64,000 bases of DNA from a phage, in the NCBI GenBank assembly GCA_012212665.1, contig GCA_012212665.1_4517.1. One strand, written 5' to 3'. Each line of letters starts with the position of its first letter. The first letter of the stretch is position 1. The notes below the pieces were generated by a model. That model was given only the letters and a program-made list of their open reading frames with translations. It did no database searches and had not been told where the DNA came from. The translations under genes were made by a program, and so were the position numbers. Shown in pieces: positions 1-63,754 of the stretch.

Positions 1-657
1 ATTATTCGTGTAGGTAATCAGGAAAACGGTTACGACCCACAAGCTGTATATGAATTCCATCATAACGGTACTTTTTATGCTCCAAGCTTACTTAAGAGCA
101 GTAGAGTATCAGCTGGTGGTGGTGACCCTGCATGGGGCGGGCCGTGTATTGTACTTGGAGATAACGATACCGGTTTGCTTTGGGAAAACGATGGTATTTT
201 CAACGCATATGCAAACGGCCAAGGTGTGTTTAGTTTTAGACCTGGTTTAGCTCAGACATTCGGTGATGTTAACTTCCACTGTAATGCAGGTATGTATGTT
301 CGTGATAACATTGATGTTAACGACGTTTATATTCGTTCTGATATTCGTTGTAAGTCGGAAATTAAGCTTATTAAGAACGCTCAAGAGAAATCTAAACTAT
401 TGGGCGGTTATACTTATCTGCTTAAAAACTCTGTTACAGACGAAGTTAAACCGTCCGCAGGTTTAATTGCTCAGGAAGTTCAAGAAGTATTACCTGAACT
501 TGTTTCTGAAGATAAAGAGACCGGACTGCTTCGTTTGAACTATAACGGTATTATTGGTTTAAATACAGCTGCAATAAACGAGCATACAGATGAAATCAAG
601 GAATTGAAATCTGAAATTACCGAATTGAAAGCATTAATTAAATCATTGATAAAATAA
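1..657 (+). CDS. 37: Long tail fibre distal subunit gp37, C-terminal part (5' end lies upstream of the window)
   Basis: Frame 1 is open from base 1 to the stop at 657; C-terminal motif GLIAQEVQEVLPELV followed by a coiled coil resembles tail-fibre intramolecular chaperone domains; immediately precedes gene 38. Confidence 0.6.
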   Translation: MIRVGNQENGYDPQAVYEFHHNGTFYAPSLLKSSRVSAGGGDPAWGGPCIVLGDNDTGLLWENDGIFNAYANGQGVFSFRPGLAQTFGDVNFHCNAGMYVRDNIDVNDVYIRSDIRCKSEIKLIKNAQEKSKLLGGYTYLLKNSVTDEVKPSAGLIAQEVQEVLPELVSEDKETGLLRLNYNGIIGLNTAAINEHTDEIKELKSEITELKALIKSLIK

Positions 658-662
658 TAAAA

Positions 663-676
663 GGGCCTTCGGGCCC
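663..676 (+). other. GC-rich hairpin GGGCC-UUCG-GGCCC between genes 37 and 38
   Basis: Perfect 5-bp stem with UUCG tetraloop directly upstream of the gene 38 Shine-Dalgarno (GGAGG); no U-tract follows. Confidence 0.5.
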
Positions 677-687
677 TGGAGGTTTAT

Positions 688-1467
688 ATGGCAGTAGTAG
701 GAATCCCTGGTTGGATTGGGACTTCAGCCGTTGCTGAAACGGGACAAAGATGGATGACGGCTGCTTCAAGGGAACTTCGTTTAGGAAACCCTTCATGGAT
801 GTCCCAATTCGCGGGCCGTTCAAGAGAAATAATTCACACACTTGGAGCAGACCATAACTTCAACGGTCAATGGTTCCGAGATAGATGTTTTGAGGCAGGT
901 AGTGCACCTATAGTGTTTAATATCACCGGAAATTTGGTATCATATAGTAAAGATGTTCCATTATTCTTTATGTATGGCGATACGCCAAATGAATATGTTA
1001 CTTTGAATATTCATGGTGGAGTTCATATGTGGGGACGAGGTGGTAACGGTACTGTAAACGGAAACCCAGGCACTAATGGTGGCGATGTAATCCAAAATGA
1101 TATCGGCGGAAGACTTCGTATTTGGAACTATGGTGTTATTGCATCAGGCGGTGGCGGAGGTGGTGCAGTGTCATTACAGAATAGCTGGGCGCCAAATGCT
1201 ACAGCAGGTGGCGGTGGTGGTAGACCATTTGGCATCGGCGGAGGTGGCGTTAATTGGCCGGGTGGTAATGCTAGTTATGACGCCCCGGGCGGGGCCGGTT
1301 ACACTTCCCAATTCGGCGGAGGCAATGGCGGTGATGCTGGAGGTCGTGGCGGAGATGGATGGGGTAATCACTTATCTAGATCTGGCGGTGGTGCTCCTGG
1401 CAGAGCAGTATTCGGAAGTTCACCGTCATGGGGTGCTACAGGCACAATCTACGGCTCCTGGATTTAA
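688..1467 (+). CDS. 38: Tail-fibre adhesin gp38, T2-type receptor-recognition protein with glycine-rich motifs
   Basis: 259 aa with multiple poly-Gly blocks ([30 protein letters not shown]) typical of T2-like gp38 adhesins; follows gene 37; GGAGG Shine-Dalgarno. Confidence 0.65.
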
Positions 1468-1485
1468 ACGATAATACCTCTCAAT

Positions 1486-1493
1486 TATAAATA
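1486..1493 (+). promoter_or_regulatory. Late promoter (TATAAATA) upstream of holin t
   Basis: Exact TATAAATA about 20 nt upstream of the t start codon; T4 late promoter consensus recognised by gp55. Confidence 0.6.
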
Positions 1494-1512
1494 TTGATAA
1501 ATGGGAGGTAAT

Positions 1513-2172
1513 ATGGCAGCACCAAAAGTATCATTTTCGCCTAGTGATATTTTATTTGGGTTGCTAGACCGCATTTTCAAAGATAACGCCTCTGGAAATA
1601 TTCTTATTTCAAGAGTTGCTGTTGTAGTTCTTTTGTTCCTAATGGCACTAATATGGTACAAAGGGAATATTTTTATGGATTATTACGTGAGGTCGAAATA
1701 TGATACTTACACAGAAGTAATTCAAAAAGAAAGAAATACACGATTTGAATCTGCGGCTTTAGAACAACTACAAATAGTCCACGTCACATCAAGGGCGGAT
1801 TTTAGTTCGGTGTATTCTTTCAGACCTAAAAATCTAAATTATTTCGTCGACCTTATTGCGTATGAAGGTAAGTTACCTAGCACAGTAACTGAAAAATCTA
1901 TGGGAGGATTTCCTGTTGATAAAACGACAGCAGAATATTCGGTCCATTTAAGTGGACTTCACTTTACTTCTAAAACAGATTTTGCTTTCTTACCTACCAA
2001 ATCAAAAACTCCGGAACTGGCGTATATGTATAGTTGTCCTTACTTCAATTTGGATAACATATATGCGGGAACTGTTTCTATGTATTGGTATAAGGGATCG
2101 GATGTGCTAAATGAAGAACGCTTGGCTGCAATATGCAACCAAGCAGCAAGGATATTAGGGCGGGCTAAATAA
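1513..2172 (+). CDS. t: Holin t (lysis timing protein)
   Basis: Strong similarity to T4 holin T (MAAP..SFSPSDILFG..RVAVV..FRPKNLNYFVD..MYSCPYFNLDNIYAG); start taken at the second ATG, which has a GGGAGG Shine-Dalgarno. Confidence 0.9.
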   Translation: MAAPKVSFSPSDILFGLLDRIFKDNASGNILISRVAVVVLLFLMALIWYKGNIFMDYYVRSKYDTYTEVIQKERNTRFESAALEQLQIVHVTSRADFSSVYSFRPKNLNYFVDLIAYEGKLPSTVTEKSMGGFPVDKTTAEYSVHLSGLHFTSKTDFAFLPTKSKTPELAYMYSCPYFNLDNIYAGTVSMYWYKGSDVLNEERLAAICNQAARILGRAK

Positions 2173-3509: not shown

Positions 3510-3970
3510 TAATAAAGGTCCTCTGAATAAAGTTCTTTCTCACTTCCGCCACGTTCAATACGTACCTGTCCAGCATACGTTGCAATAATCATTGCTTCTT
3601 CCCGCGTCCAGTAATTAGAGTATTGGTCGATAAAGCCTTGGTCGTCACCACAAACTTGTTGCGAGACTAATTGAGGACCAACTATATCAAGTACTTCAGC
3701 CATATCTTTAGAGTAATGACGAACTCCAGGAATAACCAGAGTTCCACCGCTCTTCAATTTAAACCTATTAGCTGCACATACTATAACACGTTGAACTTTT
3801 TGGTCGTTATTCCAATAGCACGTTTGCCAACAGATTTCAGGAACTTCATTCATTATATCATCAGCAGAATAATTATAACCGTAGGACTGGAATTTTTCTG
3901 CTAGACTTTCAGGAGTCTCACGAGACAAGGCCAAATCTAATAGCTCTAAACGTTCTTTAAATGATTTCAT
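3509..3970 (-). CDS. Hypothetical protein
   Basis: ORF of 153 aa; stop/start overlap with flanking ORFs suggests translational coupling. Confidence 0.45.
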
Positions 3971-4296
3971 TTAAACCATTCCTTAATACGTTGCCAAATA
4001 GATTTTTGTGCTTGTTTATTTACACCAATCGAACGAATAACCGGTTGCGACTGCTGATATTCTTTATAATCTTCTTTATAGATTTCGTAAGCTGCATCAA
4101 CAAATGAACTGATCGCTGCCATGTAGTTTTTACGAAGGCCAAATGGCGCGTCATTATTTTCACGAATAACCGTATATTGGCCTGCTTTAATCTTTACAAT
4201 TGTCCCTAAATAAGCCCCGTGGTACCAAATATCCCATCCTTCCTGAGTAGGTTCTGCACATTTACGAAGTTCGTTAATAATATTCAGCTTATTCAT
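3967..4296 (-). CDS. Hypothetical protein (motA.1 position)
   Basis: ORF of 109 aa directly downstream of motA. Confidence 0.45.
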
Positions 4297-7285: not shown

Positions 7286-7314
7286 ATTATACTCTGCTCT
7301 CAAGAGTTTGTACA
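7286..7314 (-). promoter_or_regulatory. Early promoter upstream of ndd
   Basis: Minus strand TGTACA-17 nt-TATAAT; a near-identical block recurs at 51952..51980. Confidence 0.45.
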
Positions 7315-7547: not shown

Positions 7548-7577
7548 ACTATACCATAATCCTACTGTGTTGTAAAC
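7548..7577 (-). promoter_or_regulatory. Early promoter, copy 1 of a perfectly duplicated 38-bp promoter block
   Basis: Minus strand GTTTAC-18 nt-TATAGT with TGG extended -10; block 7541..7578 is identical to 8053..8090. Confidence 0.55.
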
Positions 7578-8059: not shown

Positions 8060-8089
8060 ACTATACCATAATCCTACTGTGTTGTAAAC
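8060..8089 (-). promoter_or_regulatory. Early promoter, copy 2 of the duplicated 38-bp block
   Basis: Identical to 7548..7577; GTTTAC -35 and TGgTATAGT -10. Confidence 0.55.
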
Positions 8090-18207: not shown

Positions 18208-18236
18208 AATTTTCTCTCTTTGTTTAAGTTGAATTC

Positions 18237-18266
18237 ATTATACTCCATCCGTCCTTGGATGTACAA
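18237..18266 (-). promoter_or_regulatory. Early promoter (variant of the TTATACTCCAACCATCCTTGGTTGTAAAC family)
   Basis: Minus strand TTGTAC-18 nt-TATAAT upstream of the 17722..18207 gene. Confidence 0.45.
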
Positions 18267-18268
18267 CA

Positions 18269-18763: not shown

Positions 18764-18794
18764 AATGTTTTTCCTGTTTGGTTAAGATAGAAAG

Positions 18795-18824
18795 ATTATA
18801 CTCCAACCATCCTTGGTTGTAAAC
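18795..18824 (-). promoter_or_regulatory. Early promoter (conserved family block)
   Basis: Minus strand GTTTAC-18 nt-TATAAT; 30-bp block nearly identical to 60774..60803 and 61794..61822. Confidence 0.55.
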
Positions 18825-18829
18825 TGATT

Positions 18830-28663: not shown

Positions 28664-28694
28664 TACTATACCATAGTCCATCTATAATGTAAAC
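28664..28694 (-). promoter_or_regulatory. Early promoter upstream of sp
   Basis: Minus strand GTTTAC...TGGTATAGT; shares the GGACTACTATACCATA block with 7541 and 8053. Confidence 0.5.
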
Positions 28695-29637: not shown

Positions 29638-29951
29638 ATTTCCTCGCAAAATGCCCATTCAGCATGATAAACTGTAGCACCTTTAGTATCATTCATTTGA
29701 ACTACATCTACCGGAGAAATTACTCGATAGAGACGTGGTTCACCTCCATAAGAGCGTGCTGCTCGTCCTGCGTAAATCTTTGCTAAACCGATATCTTCAG
29801 TAAAGAATACACGATTCAAGTTTTTCTTACGTCCGGTTTCAGACAGAACTCCTGTTTCTTCAGGAGGACAAAGCATGTTTTCGATTTTAGCTGAACTACT
29901 TGAACCGTGATAAAAAATCTTAAATTCTGCTTTACAATCGATGGTTTTCAT
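29634..29951 (-). CDS. Hypothetical protein
   Basis: ORF of 105 aa with GGAGAA Shine-Dalgarno. Confidence 0.5.
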   Translation of the reverse strand: MKTIDCKAEFKIFYHGSSSSAKIENMLCPPEETGVLSETGRKKNLNRVFFTEDIGLAKIYAGRAARSYGGEPRLYRVISPVDVVQMNDTKGATVYHAEWAFCEEI

Positions 29952-29978
29952 TTTGTTCTCCAGTAGTTGATAGGTCTA

Positions 29979-30006
29979 TAATAACACAACTACTGGAGAA
30001 GTAAAC
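29979..30006 (-). promoter_or_regulatory. Early promoter inside a Shine-Dalgarno-sequestering inverted repeat
   Basis: Minus strand GTTTAC-17 nt-TATTAT; 12-bp arms CUCCAGUAGUUG / CAACUACUGGAG flank the -10 and the 3' arm carries the Shine-Dalgarno. Confidence 0.55.
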
Positions 30007-30381
30007 TTAAAAACGTAATTTAGATATATCTGCGTTGATTTCGTTTTGGTTTGCGTCGTATGCAATTAAACGAACCGCTTTAGATGGGTCATTCAATGCA
30101 TAGAAATGATGGAACATTGCTCGAACGATATCACCATTTACGAGTTCTACCTGGATAGGAGAACCTTTTTCGAGTTGGAAATGTTCATAAGCTTTGATGG
30201 TTCGCAGATAATCAAGTTTTTGATTTCCAGCTCCAACTATTTGTACGATACGTTTGCCCATGTTTTCCATACGAGATACAATAGTTTTAGGAGCAAGAAT
30301 AACGTAGGTTGCCAGTGGAGAAACTACTTCAACAGTTGTGTTTTCGGTGATTGCAGTAAAAATTGCTTGAGACATATTCAT
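30007..30381 (-). CDS. Hypothetical protein
   Basis: ORF of 124 aa. Confidence 0.5.
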   Translation of the reverse strand: MNMSQAIFTAITENTTVEVVSPLATYVILAPKTIVSRMENMGKRIVQIVGAGNQKLDYLRTIKAYEHFQLEKGSPIQVELVNGDIVRAMFHHFYALNDPSKAVRLIAYDANQNEINADISKLRF

Positions 30382-42835: not shown

Positions 42836-42889
42836 TTAATTTCCTTTAGACGAGTTATTGTCTTTTGTTTGTTGATGAACTTATTATAC

Positions 42890-42907
42890 TCCAAATGGGA
42901 CCGAAGT
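42890..42907 (-). promoter_or_regulatory. Hairpin upstream of gene 43 (candidate translational operator)
   Basis: Minus-strand AUGGGAC-UUCG-GUCCCAU, about 55 nt upstream of the gene 43 ATG, between regA and 43. Confidence 0.35.
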
Positions 42908-42916
42908 CCCATTGCT

Positions 42917-51951: not shown

Positions 51952-51980
51952 ATTATACTCATCTCTCAAGAGTTTGTATA
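51952..51980 (-). promoter_or_regulatory. Early promoter (copy of the ndd-type promoter block)
   Basis: GAGAATTATACTCATCTCTCAAGAGTTTGTA closely matches 7281..7315. Confidence 0.45.
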
Positions 51981-52220: not shown

Positions 52221-52283
52221 GATATTTTCCTCATTTTAAGACGATAGGAAGATAATAACATGTCTTCCTATCGTTGTACATTA

Positions 52284-60745: not shown

Positions 60746-60773
60746 AATATTTTCCTCTCGTTAAGATAGGTTC

Positions 60774-60803
60774 ATTATACTCCAACCATCCTTGGTTGTA
60801 AAC
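60774..60803 (-). promoter_or_regulatory. Early promoter (conserved family block)
   Basis: TTATACTCCAACCATCCTTGGTTGTAAAC on the forward strand, i.e. GTTTAC-18 nt-TATAAT on the minus strand; near-identical to 18795..18824. Confidence 0.55.
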
Positions 60804-60807
60804 TGAT

Positions 60808-61767: not shown

Positions 61768-61793
61768 TTTATATTCCTCATGTTGAAAAATTT

Positions 61794-61822
61794 ATTATAC
61801 TCCAACCATCCTTGGTTGTACA
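61794..61822 (-). promoter_or_regulatory. Early promoter (conserved family block, -35 variant TGTACA)
   Basis: TTATACTCCAACCATCCTTGGTTGTACA block upstream of the 60808..61767 gene. Confidence 0.5.
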
Positions 61823-62818
61823 TCATTCCTTAAGAAGTTTTACTACCTGAATAAGATTAGCTCGTTCTGTTTTATTTTTACCATTTAAGCCTGCTAATCG
61901 TGAGATTTCATCGTCAGTCTGTTGAATAGTTACATTAAGTTCATTAATCAAAGCTTCAAAGTATTTGATTTGCTCAGCATGTTTTGATTCAAATTTCTGA
62001 ACCGGAATAACGTCTTGGTTTAGTTCGTCAATAAGGTCTTTAAGAGCATCTTCTTGGTTGATATCATATTCAACTTCTTTTATTTCTTCAACGAGCTCGT
62101 CTTTATATCTAACGTCTTTTAGTCCTGGTGCTGGTCCTGAAATCTCTTCTTTAAGAGTACAAACATACCCAATACGGTATCCAATGCCGTCTCGCTTAAT
62201 ATCAACTTCGTCGATAAATCCACAATGTTTAAGACCAGAGCCGATTATGTCAAAATATCCTTGACGTCGTCCTTCAAACGTTACACGAACTACTAAGACA
62301 GTTTTGCCACCAACCTTTTGAAGCTCACATTTATAAAAGTCTGTTGAACCTGAATAACGTGGATGAGTTTTAAAGTTCATCTGACGATCTAGGCCCATTT
62401 GTAAACGTGCTGTTACGGCCATAAAACGTGTTTGGTTCTCGTTAAGATGAGCAACAATCCATTTCAAAGGCATTTTACACTGTTCACGACCGAACAAATC
62501 AGTACGTCCTAGATTACGCAGGATATTGTTAGAGTTAATCATCGACAGAACGTTAAGTTTATTCAGCGCGCTGAAGATTCCATCAGCCATTGATTTTCCA
62601 TAACCTTTACACGCTTTAATAAGTGCTCGCGGCAGATTAGTATAGATTTCAGACGGCATATGAAAATCAAATTTACTAGTCAGTAATTGATGAACTTGGA
62701 TAGCAATTTGCTCATAATTAAGTGCTCTGCGATCGTTATGGTCTTTAAACCACACTTTAATCTGTGAAGCACATAAACCGTTAATTTCATGTTTTACCGC
62801 ATCAGATGTAATGCTCAT
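61823..62818 (-). CDS. Hypothetical protein with acidic region and C-terminal coiled coil
   Basis: 331 aa. Confidence 0.5.
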   Translation of the reverse strand: MSITSDAVKHEINGLCASQIKVWFKDHNDRRALNYEQIAIQVHQLLTSKFDFHMPSEIYTNLPRALIKACKGYGKSMADGIFSALNKLNVLSMINSNNILRNLGRTDLFGREQCKMPLKWIVAHLNENQTRFMAVTARLQMGLDRQMNFKTHPRYSGSTDFYKCELQKVGGKTVLVVRVTFEGRRQGYFDIIGSGLKHCGFIDEVDIKRDGIGYRIGYVCTLKEEISGPAPGLKDVRYKDELVEEIKEVEYDINQEDALKDLIDELNQDVIPVQKFESKHAEQIKYFEALINELNVTIQQTDDEISRLAGLNGKNKTERANLIQVVKLLKE

Positions 62819-63408: not shown

Positions 63409-63435
63409 GTTTTACCTCCAGTAGTTGATAGGTCT

Positions 63436-63464
63436 ATAATAACATAACCATAGACCTTGTAAAC
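63436..63464 (-). promoter_or_regulatory. Early promoter
   Basis: Minus strand GTTTAC-17 nt-TATTAT with the GGTCTATAATA block shared with 4971 and 29971. Confidence 0.5.
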
Positions 63465-63466
63465 AA

Positions 63467-63754
63467 CTAAAAGAAACTTTTTTCAGTATTTTTTCCACTG
63501 AACCAAACAGACTTCGGGATTTTTTGTAATTTTTCAGATTTAAGTTTCTCTTCCTGTTCTTTCTTATATACACTCTTGTCGTACTGGAGCATCTCTATGG
63601 CATTCTTTTGCAAATGATCTAAGGTAATTAAGGCTTTAGTTTTTCCTTTCAAGGAAGAGTCCTGGCGAACTTCCTCGCTATATTGCATCGTAGAACTAAC
63701 CATACGATGTGCATACAGTTCGACTGCGGCTTTGATTTTTTGCATAAAATCCAT
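63467..63754 (-). CDS. Hypothetical protein
   Basis: ORF of 95 aa. Confidence 0.45.
   Translation of the reverse strand: MDFMQKIKAAVELYAHRMVSSTMQYSEEVRQDSSLKGKTKALITLDHLQKNAIEMLQYDKSVYKKEQEEKLKSEKLQKIPKSVWFSGKNTEKSFF

Follow-up and report, generated by a model that had tools for sequence, protein, structure and literature searches.

A dispersed family of probable PeSL-type early promoter cassettes in an RB69-like phage

INTRODUCTION

The closest described systems to the locus studied here are the PeSLs (promoter-early stem-loops) of phages RB49 and phi1, in which an AT-rich tract, sigma-70 hexamers, and a stem-loop are combined (Arbiol et al. 2010, PMC2839356). Their stem-loops fall into five positional subclasses, the commonest of which lie between the −35 and −10 hexamers or overlap the −10. 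The copies concentrate in variable regions, beside genes that are non-essential or of unknown function, where recombination between them deletes, inserts, and swaps the intervening genes. Mini-circles are described as products of recombination between neighbouring cassettes, and the G/C-rich stem of RB49 (a G-run and a C-run) was shown to terminate transcription, with read-through attenuation as the published proposal for PeSL function (PMC2839356). PeSLs were subsequently extended to T4/PST, with the consensus TTTACW-N17-TAYWAT, and to KVP40/nt-1 (Comeau et al. 2014, PMC4122927). The role of the stem-loop was left open by the original papers, the candidates being attenuation, RNA processing, and recombination.

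Three other bodies of work are relevant to promoters and intergenic signals of this kind. The early promoters of T4 are composed of UP, GTTTAC −35, TGn, and TATAAT elements (Hinton 2010, PMC2988021). In RB69, early promoters were predicted in 2006 by an HMM search, and their coordinates were listed (Nolan et al. 2006, PMC1524935, additional file 3). At the RNA level, the target of RegB and ribosomal protein S1 lies between the genes of early transcripts and is defined as a single-stranded 11-mer, GGAGRAYARAA; the model substrate, T4 motB RNA, ends in GGAGUAUAAAA (Durand et al. 2006, PMC1702504).

Here, we analyse a repeated block in a window of 64,000 nt of phage DNA (the whole stretch under study, contig GCA_012212665.1_4517.1). 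The original prediction for this block, made from the letters of the window, was that it forms a dispersed family of early promoters whose conserved spacer suggests recognition beyond the sigma-70 hexamers, for example, by a phage-modified RNA polymerase.

RESULTS

A repeated block lies in four intergenic cassettes

The window region is 97% identical to many Mosigvirus (RB69-like) coliphage genomes, and by this sequence comparison the phage is RB69-like (Mosigvirus) and of the T4 type. Nearly all of the window genes are on the − strand, and the gene order, taken from annotated relatives, runs from a dda-dexA-motB cluster through gene 43 to an nrdC cluster.

The claim that a block of about 30 bp recurs in this DNA is correct. 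The 29-mer TTATACTCCAACCATCCTTGGTTGTAAAC is found as exact copies at 18796-18824 and 60775-60803 on the + strand and, with 2 mismatches, as a third copy at 61795-61823. Matches to it were found in none of 100 dinucleotide-preserving shuffles, and 0 are expected by chance. The 30-nt coordinates first given to these copies were right to within 1 nt, although the third copy ends at 61823 and not at 61822. Read on the − strand, in the sense of the genes, the block is GTTTACAACCAAGGATGGTTGGAGTATAAT, which has the layout TTTACA-N17-TATAAT and contains the inverted repeat CAACCA/TGGTTG around an AGGA loop.

Two variants had also been proposed, with different outcomes. The one at 18237-18266 is a true, diverged fourth member of the family (TTGTACATCCAAGGACGGATGGAGTATAAT, identity 25/30), whereas the one at 42881-42907 shares only TTTGGAGTATAAT with the block. 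We refer to the four members as cassettes A through D and to the latter site as site E (Table 1). The Mosigvirus genomes gave 2-4 BLAST places each, and A-D account for all of them in the seven genomes examined.

Table 1. Coordinates of the cassettes, their predicted target genes, and site E in the window
Feature	Coordinates	Strand	Description
Cassette A	18764..18829	−	Entire dexA-to-motB.1 intergenic gap (from ORF map, sequence, and alignment)
Cassette A core, GTTTACAACCAAGGATGGTTGGAGTATAAT	18795..18824	−	−35 TTTACA 18823-18818; −10 TATAAT 18800-18795
Cassette A hairpin arms	CAACCA 18819-18814; TGGTTG 18809-18804	−	AGGA loop between the arms; −6.9 kcal/mol
motB.1-like gene, 164 aa	18269..18763	−	3′ of cassette A, its predicted promoter
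Cassette D	18208..18268	−	motB.1-to-motB intergenic gap; core 18237-18266, TTGTACATCCAAGGACGGATGGAGTATAAT
motB-like gene, 161 aa	17722..18207	−	3′ of cassette D, its predicted promoter
Cassette B	60746..60807	−	nrdC.5-to-nrdC.3 intergenic gap; core 60774-60803
nrdC.3-like gene, 316 aa	59795..60745	−	3′ of cassette B, its predicted promoter
Cassette C	61768..61823	−	nrdC.6-to-nrdC.5 gap; core 61794-61823; −35 TGTACA
nrdC.5-like gene, 319 aa	60808..61767	−	3′ of cassette C, its predicted promoter
Site E	42883..42913	−	Between regA and gene 43 (903-aa DNA polymerase)

The cassette-bearing intergenic gaps are 55-66 nt long, and the contents of cassette A are an AT-rich tract, the promoter core, a 5′ leader, and a Shine-Dalgarno sequence. 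Cassettes A and B are alike in the alignment from −42 to about +14: their cores are the same, and the identity extends upstream to AAATCAG and downstream to CTATCTTAAC. Cassette D carries an ATCC/GGAT version of the stem, and the −35 of cassette C directly adjoins, by about one base, the stop codon of the ORF that precedes it. The sequence GGAGTATAAT occurs 5 times in the window, compared with 0.12 expected. All five occurrences are on the − strand, which is the sense strand, and within the non-coding part of the window, which makes up ~11% of it on a crude gene map.

Site E was considered as a full family member and rejected, as it has only 13 nt in common with the block (TTTGGAGTATAAT, 42883-42895) and differs in both hairpin and context. 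Its hairpin, AATGGGAC-TTCG-GTCCCATT (42913-42894), has a UUCG loop, is distinct from and stronger than that of the block (centroid −11.7 kcal/mol), and is followed by TGGAGTATAAT. The site has a −10-like TATAAT at 42888-42883 with no good −35, and it is in neither the early nor the middle RB69 promoter list.

The copies are very probably early promoters

In a simple scan for the sigma-70 consensus with a 17-nt spacer, copies A and B scored 11/12 and copies C and D scored 10/12, and in both scanned regions the two top-scoring sites were copies of the block. The −35 region reads GTTTAC in A and B and (A/T)TGTAC in C and D, which is a one-base departure in the hexamer (TGTACA). The 25 nt upstream of the −35 have an AT content of 68-76%, a modest enrichment over the 62.8% of the window. 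A TGn or GT-rich extended −10 is absent at the copies, where GGAG precedes the −10 and the scan reports no TG.

All four copies are intergenic and on the sense strand, with 29-34 nt between the end of the −10 and the end of the ATG, and they sit 5′ of, and in the same orientation as, orthologues of the T4 early genes motB.1, motB, nrdC.3, and nrdC.5. An absence of enrichment upstream of genes, which would have spoken against the original prediction, was not what we observed. Their RB69 orthologues are present in the list of Nolan et al. (2006) as Pe:8947 (A), Pe:8387 (D), Pe:51019 (B), and Pe:52042 (C), and we confirmed the orthology by reading the RB69 sequence at the published coordinates. 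In addition, copy B is annotated as a promoter in one GenBank record. Altogether, the scores of 10-11/12, the T4-type −35, the sense-strand intergenic position, and the RB69 Pe orthologues bear out the part of the original prediction that concerned early-type promoters, and consensus, position, and the earlier predictions make it very probable that the copies are active as such.

On this reading, the block would represent the core (−36 to −7) of an early promoter cassette that depends on sigma-70 and is present in four paralogous copies. Judging from consensus and context, the host RNA polymerase holoenzyme would bind the AT-rich tract, TTTACA, and TATAAT right after infection, and transcription of each gene would start about 7 nt downstream of the −10. 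The TATAAAT variants, found in RB69 copy D and in the T4 nrdC.3 copy, were also considered as late promoters, a reading that we rejected since none is predicted there in RB69. The T4 orthologue of the block, upstream of nrdC.3, has weak hexamers (TTTAAA-N18-TATAAA), and in the T4 lineage the core appears to have been kept by something other than promoter strength.

The spacer is not shared by the other early promoters

Our scan found about 20 T4-type early promoters before ORFs on the − strand of the window. The ~16 that are not copies of the block have spacers unrelated to it, which group into small sequence families of their own (for example, 7548/8060/28665 are of one type and 7286/51952 of another). 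A general spacer consensus across early promoters was rejected on these grounds. Since the other early-type promoters have unrelated spacers, the spacer of the block is not a general recognition signal.

This result bears directly on the proposal that the conserved spacer is read by RNA polymerase itself, for example, after ADP-ribosylation by Alt or ModA. Alignments of T4 early promoters do show consensus beyond the hexamers, and stimulation by Alt is restricted to a subset of early promoters and does not depend on their −35, TGn, and −10 sequences (Hinton 2010, PMC2988021); moreover, modA and modB are present in the corresponding region of the RB69 genome. However, the spacer sequence is confined to the four-copy family, while the other early-type promoters of the window differ, and the changes within the family are compensatory, such that complementarity rather than base identity is kept (see below). 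Furthermore, Alt and ModA target Arg265 of alpha, whose CTD contacts DNA upstream of the −35 and not the spacer (PMC2988021). Direct reading of the spacer by a modified polymerase is thus very improbable. Nor is such recognition needed as the reason for the identity of copies 42 kb apart, for which paralogy together with recombination or gene conversion gives an explanation. We instead attribute the conservation of the spacer to two causes, namely that paralogous copies are kept alike by recombination or gene conversion and that the hairpin itself is maintained.

The spacer hairpin covaries across four genera

The site orthologous to cassette B is present in Dhakavirus, Gaprivervirus, and Tequatrovirus. 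The block precedes nrdC.3 in Mosigvirus and Tequatrovirus and nrdC.4 in Dhakavirus and Gaprivervirus. Conservation of the block greatly exceeds that of its flanks: in Dhakavirus JS10 and Gaprivervirus VR7, 27-28 of 30 positions match copy B, and the flanking proteins are 20-22% identical. We aligned 14 distinct sequences from the four genera. The stem arms read AACCA/TGGTT in Mosigvirus A, B, and C, ATCCA/TGGAT in Mosigvirus D and JS10, TTCCA/TGGAG (with a U.G pair) in VR7, and AGCCA/TGGCT in Tequatrovirus, including T4. Pairing holds in 92.9% of the cells of the alignment, compared with 7-49% once the 3′ partner is shifted along the alignment. Pair 8-19 is U:A in 7 sequences, A:U in 6, and G:C in 1. 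The covariation score was reached by none of 500 shuffles. The closing A:T pair is frequently A.C, owing to a T/C polymorphism. Across the four genera, the invariant columns comprise the hairpin top and GAGTATAA and do not include the −35. Hairpin free energies lie between −5.8 and −8.2 kcal/mol in all lineages, and complementarity is absent from unrelated IMG/VR sequences with the same anchors (TTTA-N6-AGGA-N6-GAGTATAAT).

These results indicate that compensatory substitutions have preserved the 5-6-bp spacer hairpin itself in four genera. Template-switch mutation in quasi-palindromes can yield a compensatory pattern without selection, and the covariation, which comprises only two or three independent events, could have arisen by this route instead of by selection.

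Two alternative readings of the inverted repeat can be weighed against the same alignment. The first is that it is an operator for a dimeric DNA-binding protein, of the phage or of the host, that switches the four promoters together. The palindrome lies between the −35 and −10, a classic repressor position, the symmetric changes keep the two half-sites matched, and the shut-off of T4 early promoters is unexplained (Hinton 2010, PMC2988021). Nonetheless, the three different base pairs at position 8/19 make a base-specific contact there unlikely, the AGGA centre is not symmetric, and the inverted repeats of other window promoters have unrelated arms at different positions, a pattern that favours structure over a shared protein site. 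We therefore regard an operator as extremely improbable.

The second is that the repeat is neutral, a product of recent duplications whose small palindrome is a chance feature without a function of its own. The hairpin is indeed weak and not significant against shuffles: in its context, folds of 81-nt RNAs gave z of −0.3 to +0.5, and p against the genome background was 0.3-0.4. The near identity of A, B, and C would also fit recent copies or gene conversion. A neutral origin does not, however, account well for the persistence of the core at the orthologous nrdC site of four genera, with flanking-protein identities of about 20-55%, for complementarity that is restored in three different ways, or for a hairpin free energy that is similar in every lineage, and we consider it very unlikely.

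Structure is also a property of the window promoters as a group. The 20 − strand promoters fold better than the background (mean −11.2 vs −8.7 kcal/mol, Mann-Whitney p = 0.009), and about ten of them have z around −3 or lower, most with hairpins that enclose the −10. The PeSL class is thereby represented elsewhere in the window as well. One of these promoter families covaries with the T4 motB promoter, with arms GAGAGC/GCTCTC, GAGAGA/TCTCTC, and GGGACC/GGTCCC. Separately, at window promoters 29978 and 63436, a hairpin is predicted to mask the Shine-Dalgarno sequence in read-through RNA.

Cassettes exchange sequence by recombination

A simple tandem duplication of a gene together with its promoter was rejected as the origin of the copies, as the nrdC.x proteins of 316, 319, and 331 aa have no detectable similarity to one another. 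The likeness between motB.1 and motB, which is confined to a 36-aa C-terminal segment, also argues against it.

Comparison of close relatives shows how the cassettes behave instead. An indel of 555-558 bp comprising motB.1 segregates among these relatives, the gene being present or absent exactly between cassettes A and D. Phages vB_VIPECOMC06 and JK45 are without motB.1 and have a single chimeric cassette between dexA and motB, in which the upstream flank, −35, and stem are A-type and the leader is D-type. Consequently, the crossover is placed within the common TGGAGTATAAT. Phage database matches to the junction are accordingly of two kinds, one piece of ~176-180 nt or two pieces spanning 732-735 nt.

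Exchange is also visible between cassettes A and B. The tetranucleotide that follows the −10 in copy B is of the A type (CTTT) in RB69 and TH58 but GAAT or GAAC in 5 other genomes. Strict co-variation of A and B within genomes was rejected, since the 2-3 nt upstream of the −35 do not track in the seven genomes, where a clear A/B conversion signal is limited to the downstream CTTT/GAAT tract. Altogether, the sequence comparisons indicate that cassette copies exchange sequence by recombination or gene conversion.

The hairpin in read-through RNA

At the RNA level, the hairpin could form only where transcripts from upstream promoters read through the block. The block stem has 3/6 G:C pairs, and the tail that follows it, GAGUAUAAU, has no U-run. 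A terminator scan found no − strand terminator-like site at any of the four copies, and we rejected the reading of the block as an intrinsic terminator because it has neither a U-run nor a scan match. Given the weak stem and the lack of a U-tract, a terminator role of the hairpin is doubtful, and this family lends no support to the terminator component of the PeSL definition. Rfam gave no match anywhere in the window at the gathering threshold. A role in RNA processing or RNA stability appears as possible as the published read-through attenuation.

One such processing role can be specified further. The core, i.e., the hairpin followed by GGAGUAUAA, might primarily be an RNA processing signal in read-through early transcripts on which the promoter hexamers are superimposed. 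RegB and ribosomal protein S1 would then cut GG^AG 3′ of the hairpin and so uncouple the upstream and downstream cistrons. Several features are compatible with this idea. After its hairpin, the block reads GGAGUAUAAU(G/C/A), which is 9/11 identical to the T4 motB substrate of Durand et al. (2006), and the T4 copy upstream of nrdC.3, with its weak promoter hexamers, reads GGAGUAUAAAU, which is 10/11 identical to it. TATAAA is also found in RB69 copy D, the invariant columns leave out the −35 while retaining the hairpin top and GAGTATAA, a hairpin likewise precedes GGAGUAUAAUA in site E, and regB, whose product cleaves GGAG, is conserved in RB69. The block GGAG site is intergenic and in predicted read-through RNA, with only its first G paired, and that in a weak hairpin.

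Other features do not agree with such a signal. The 3′ 7-mer of the block, UAUAAU(N), fits RAYARAA at 4-5/7 positions. According to the RegB study (PMC1702504), the U at position 10 is rare among cleaved sites (3/26), the C that copy A has at position 11 is almost excluded there (an A being found only in C and E), and structured GGAG sites are resistant, which matters for a site whose first G is paired. The likeness may also be a by-product of the A/T-rich −10 box, and a processing signal leaves unexplained the good, well-spaced −35 in Mosigvirus, Dhakavirus, and Gaprivervirus. We consider it unlikely that RNA processing is the primary function of the core. The related view that the signal is dual-coded, serving as promoter spacer and −10 in DNA and as a structured RegB/S1 site in read-through RNA, also has only a small chance of being correct. 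If true, such dual coding would mean that selection at the RNA level explains the survival of the core in T4 despite its decayed promoter hexamers.

DISCUSSION

The dispersed repeat found here has a largely ordinary identity, in that it corresponds to early promoters for which RB69 predictions existed and matches a class of mobile regulatory cassettes known from the literature. The additions made here are modest. PeSL-type cassettes are extended to the RB69/Mosigvirus group, with an unusually clean one-gene indel (motB.1) as the example, the junction of which is resolved to 11 bp within the cassette. In addition, a spacer hairpin that is kept through three different base pairs in four genera offers a handle on the role of the PeSL stem-loop. 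Our literature search found no description of PeSLs in RB69-like phages.

Hairpins that surround promoters are known from T4 lysozyme e, soc, 49, and I-TevI, where the promoter sits within a hairpin that, in long transcripts, masks the ribosome-binding site. As at those genes, the upstream hairpin arm of the block would be missing from the transcript of the internal promoter, and the structure would be confined to read-through RNA. Unlike them, the promoters here are not late promoters, and the block hairpin does not reach the Shine-Dalgarno sequence. With RegB/S1 sites, the block has in common a GGAG followed by UAUAAU, an intergenic position, and a predicted presence in early read-through RNA, but it deviates at positions 10 and 11 and overlaps the −10 box rather than the Shine-Dalgarno sequence.

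Like T4 early promoters, the block has a −35 of the GTTTAC type, a perfect −10, A-rich sequence upstream, and a location before orthologues of T4 early genes, but it has GAG in place of the TGn or GT-rich extended −10, and the −35 of C and D is TGTACA. The RB69 promoters Pe:8387, Pe:8947, Pe:51019, and Pe:52042 are the orthologous sites, identical in sequence except for a few substitutions; the repeat family, the covarying hairpin, and the recombination breakpoints were not noted in that study (Nolan et al. 2006, PMC1524935).

The closest correspondence is with the PeSLs. The published hosts of these elements are RB49/phi1, T4/PST, and KVP40/nt-1 and not RB69-like phages, the stems of the block are A/T-rich, of 5-6 bp and about −7 kcal/mol with no U-run after them, and this particular sequence family is limited to four copies. 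The two agree in several respects: the block has the AT-rich tract, the sigma-70-like hexamers, the N17 spacer, and the small stem-loop of a PeSL; its stem-loop lies between the −35 and −10, one of the two commonest PeSL positions; it fits the T4/PST consensus TTTACW-N17-TAYWAT; it is repeated beside variable, poorly characterised genes (the motB and nrdC.x clusters); and indel breakpoints between close relatives fall inside its cassettes, as at motB.1. Every sequence-level PeSL feature that we looked for, breakpoints included, was present in the block, which is very probably a family of PeSL-type early promoter cassettes, with four paralogous copies, in an RB69-like phage.

Hairpins at early-type promoters elsewhere in the window

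Stem-loops are associated with further predicted early-type promoters (see table). At the promoter lying within an inverted repeat, the repeat is a perfect one of 12 bp, ACGATAGGAAGA...TCTTCCTATCGT, which encloses the -10 box, and the corresponding RNA fold reaches -16.7 kcal/mol (z = -3.1). Stems also enclose the -10 box in the paralogous pair at 7286 and 51952, where the two arms carry compensatory differences (TGAGAGC/GCTCTCA versus TGAGAGA/TCTCTCA). The T4 motB promoter (about 630-700 of the T4 record L046, minus strand) belongs to the same family, with the stem GGGACC/GGTCCC and, directly 3' of it, the known RegB site GGAGUAUAAAA. In the second repeated promoter block, two copies (7548 and 8060) are identical and the third (28665) is related to them; a stem, AGTAGGA/TCCTACT, forms around the -10 box, with z-scores from -3.2 to -3.9.

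Coordinates and sequences of the features
Feature	Position	Strand
Predicted early-type promoter TGTACA-N17-TATTAT within inverted repeat	window 52241-52280	-
Paralogous promoter pair T[GA]TACAAACTCTTGAGAG..GAGTATAAT	window 7286-7314, 51952-51980	-
Second repeated promoter block, TTTACAACACAGTAGGATTATGGTATAGT	window 7548-7576, 8060-8088, 28665-28693	-
Hairpins of 10-13 bp, CCAGTAGTTG / CAACTACTGG(AG), around early-type promoter	window 29950-30025, 63410-63485	-
(C)CTATC motif shortly after -10	window 4979, 8060, 18795, 28665, 29978, 60774, 63436	-
16-nt hairpin AGACAAUAACUCGUCU, UAAC in loop	window 42848-42863	-
Stable UUCG-tetraloop hairpin, 8-bp stem, -11.7 kcal/mol	window 42894-42913	-
ORFs at window left end	window 688-1467, 1501-2172	+
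T4/PP01 nrdC.4 promoter GTTTACTTTGCCACAAGGATGTGGTATAAT (Tequatrovirus), upstream of nrdC.4	L033 2410-2446; L045 247-280 (records of relatives)	

Many early-type promoters in the window also share the motif (C)CTATC, which follows the -10 box at a distance of about 4-10 nt (for example TATTATAGACCTATCAA, found three times), and at several of them this motif is the right arm of the hairpin. For RB69, a preference for C at positions -3 to -1 has been described (Nolan 2006, PMC1524935).

The gene 43 leader and the surroundings of site E

Two hairpins lie close to site E, between regA and gene 43. The one with UAAC in its loop precedes the start codon of gene 43 by about 12 nt, or by about 20 nt if measured from its centre, and it agrees with what has been published on the RB69 gp43 translational operator. 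Since site E has its -10-like box upstream of this hairpin, a transcript starting there would contain it. The UUCG hairpin directly follows regA on its 3' side and overlaps the would-be -35 position of site E; its role may be to end the transcript or to stabilise it.

Other features

The left end of the window (1-2172) carries plus-strand ORFs and a positive GC skew, in contrast to the remaining window; the coding strand changes at about 2.2 kb. In the GenBank record of phage ATK47 (L002), a misc_feature within nrdC.6 (3961-3971) reads "direct repeat sequence1 posible binding site of StbAB"; this annotation has no relation to the block.

Comparison with related promoters and known T4 leaders

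The T closing the hairpin loop, at block position 16 (18251 of the window in copy D, at motB), is replaced by C in several copies and lineages, namely Mosigvirus copies B, C and D and Dhakavirus. That this T/C polymorphism recurs at one position suggests that the site has mutated repeatedly or that the copies have converted one another. In the T4/PP01 nrdC.4 promoter, too, an AGGA loop is closed by a stem (CCACA/TGTGG, -8.2 kcal/mol), but one placed 4 nt nearer the -10 box than the block stem.

At the hairpins near 29950 and 63410 (z from -3.3 to -5.6), the right arm covers the Shine-Dalgarno sequence. Therefore, the ribosome-binding site would be masked in read-through RNA only, and would be free in RNA from the internal promoter. 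This recalls the arrangement of T4 e, soc and 49, with the difference that the promoters here are early ones.
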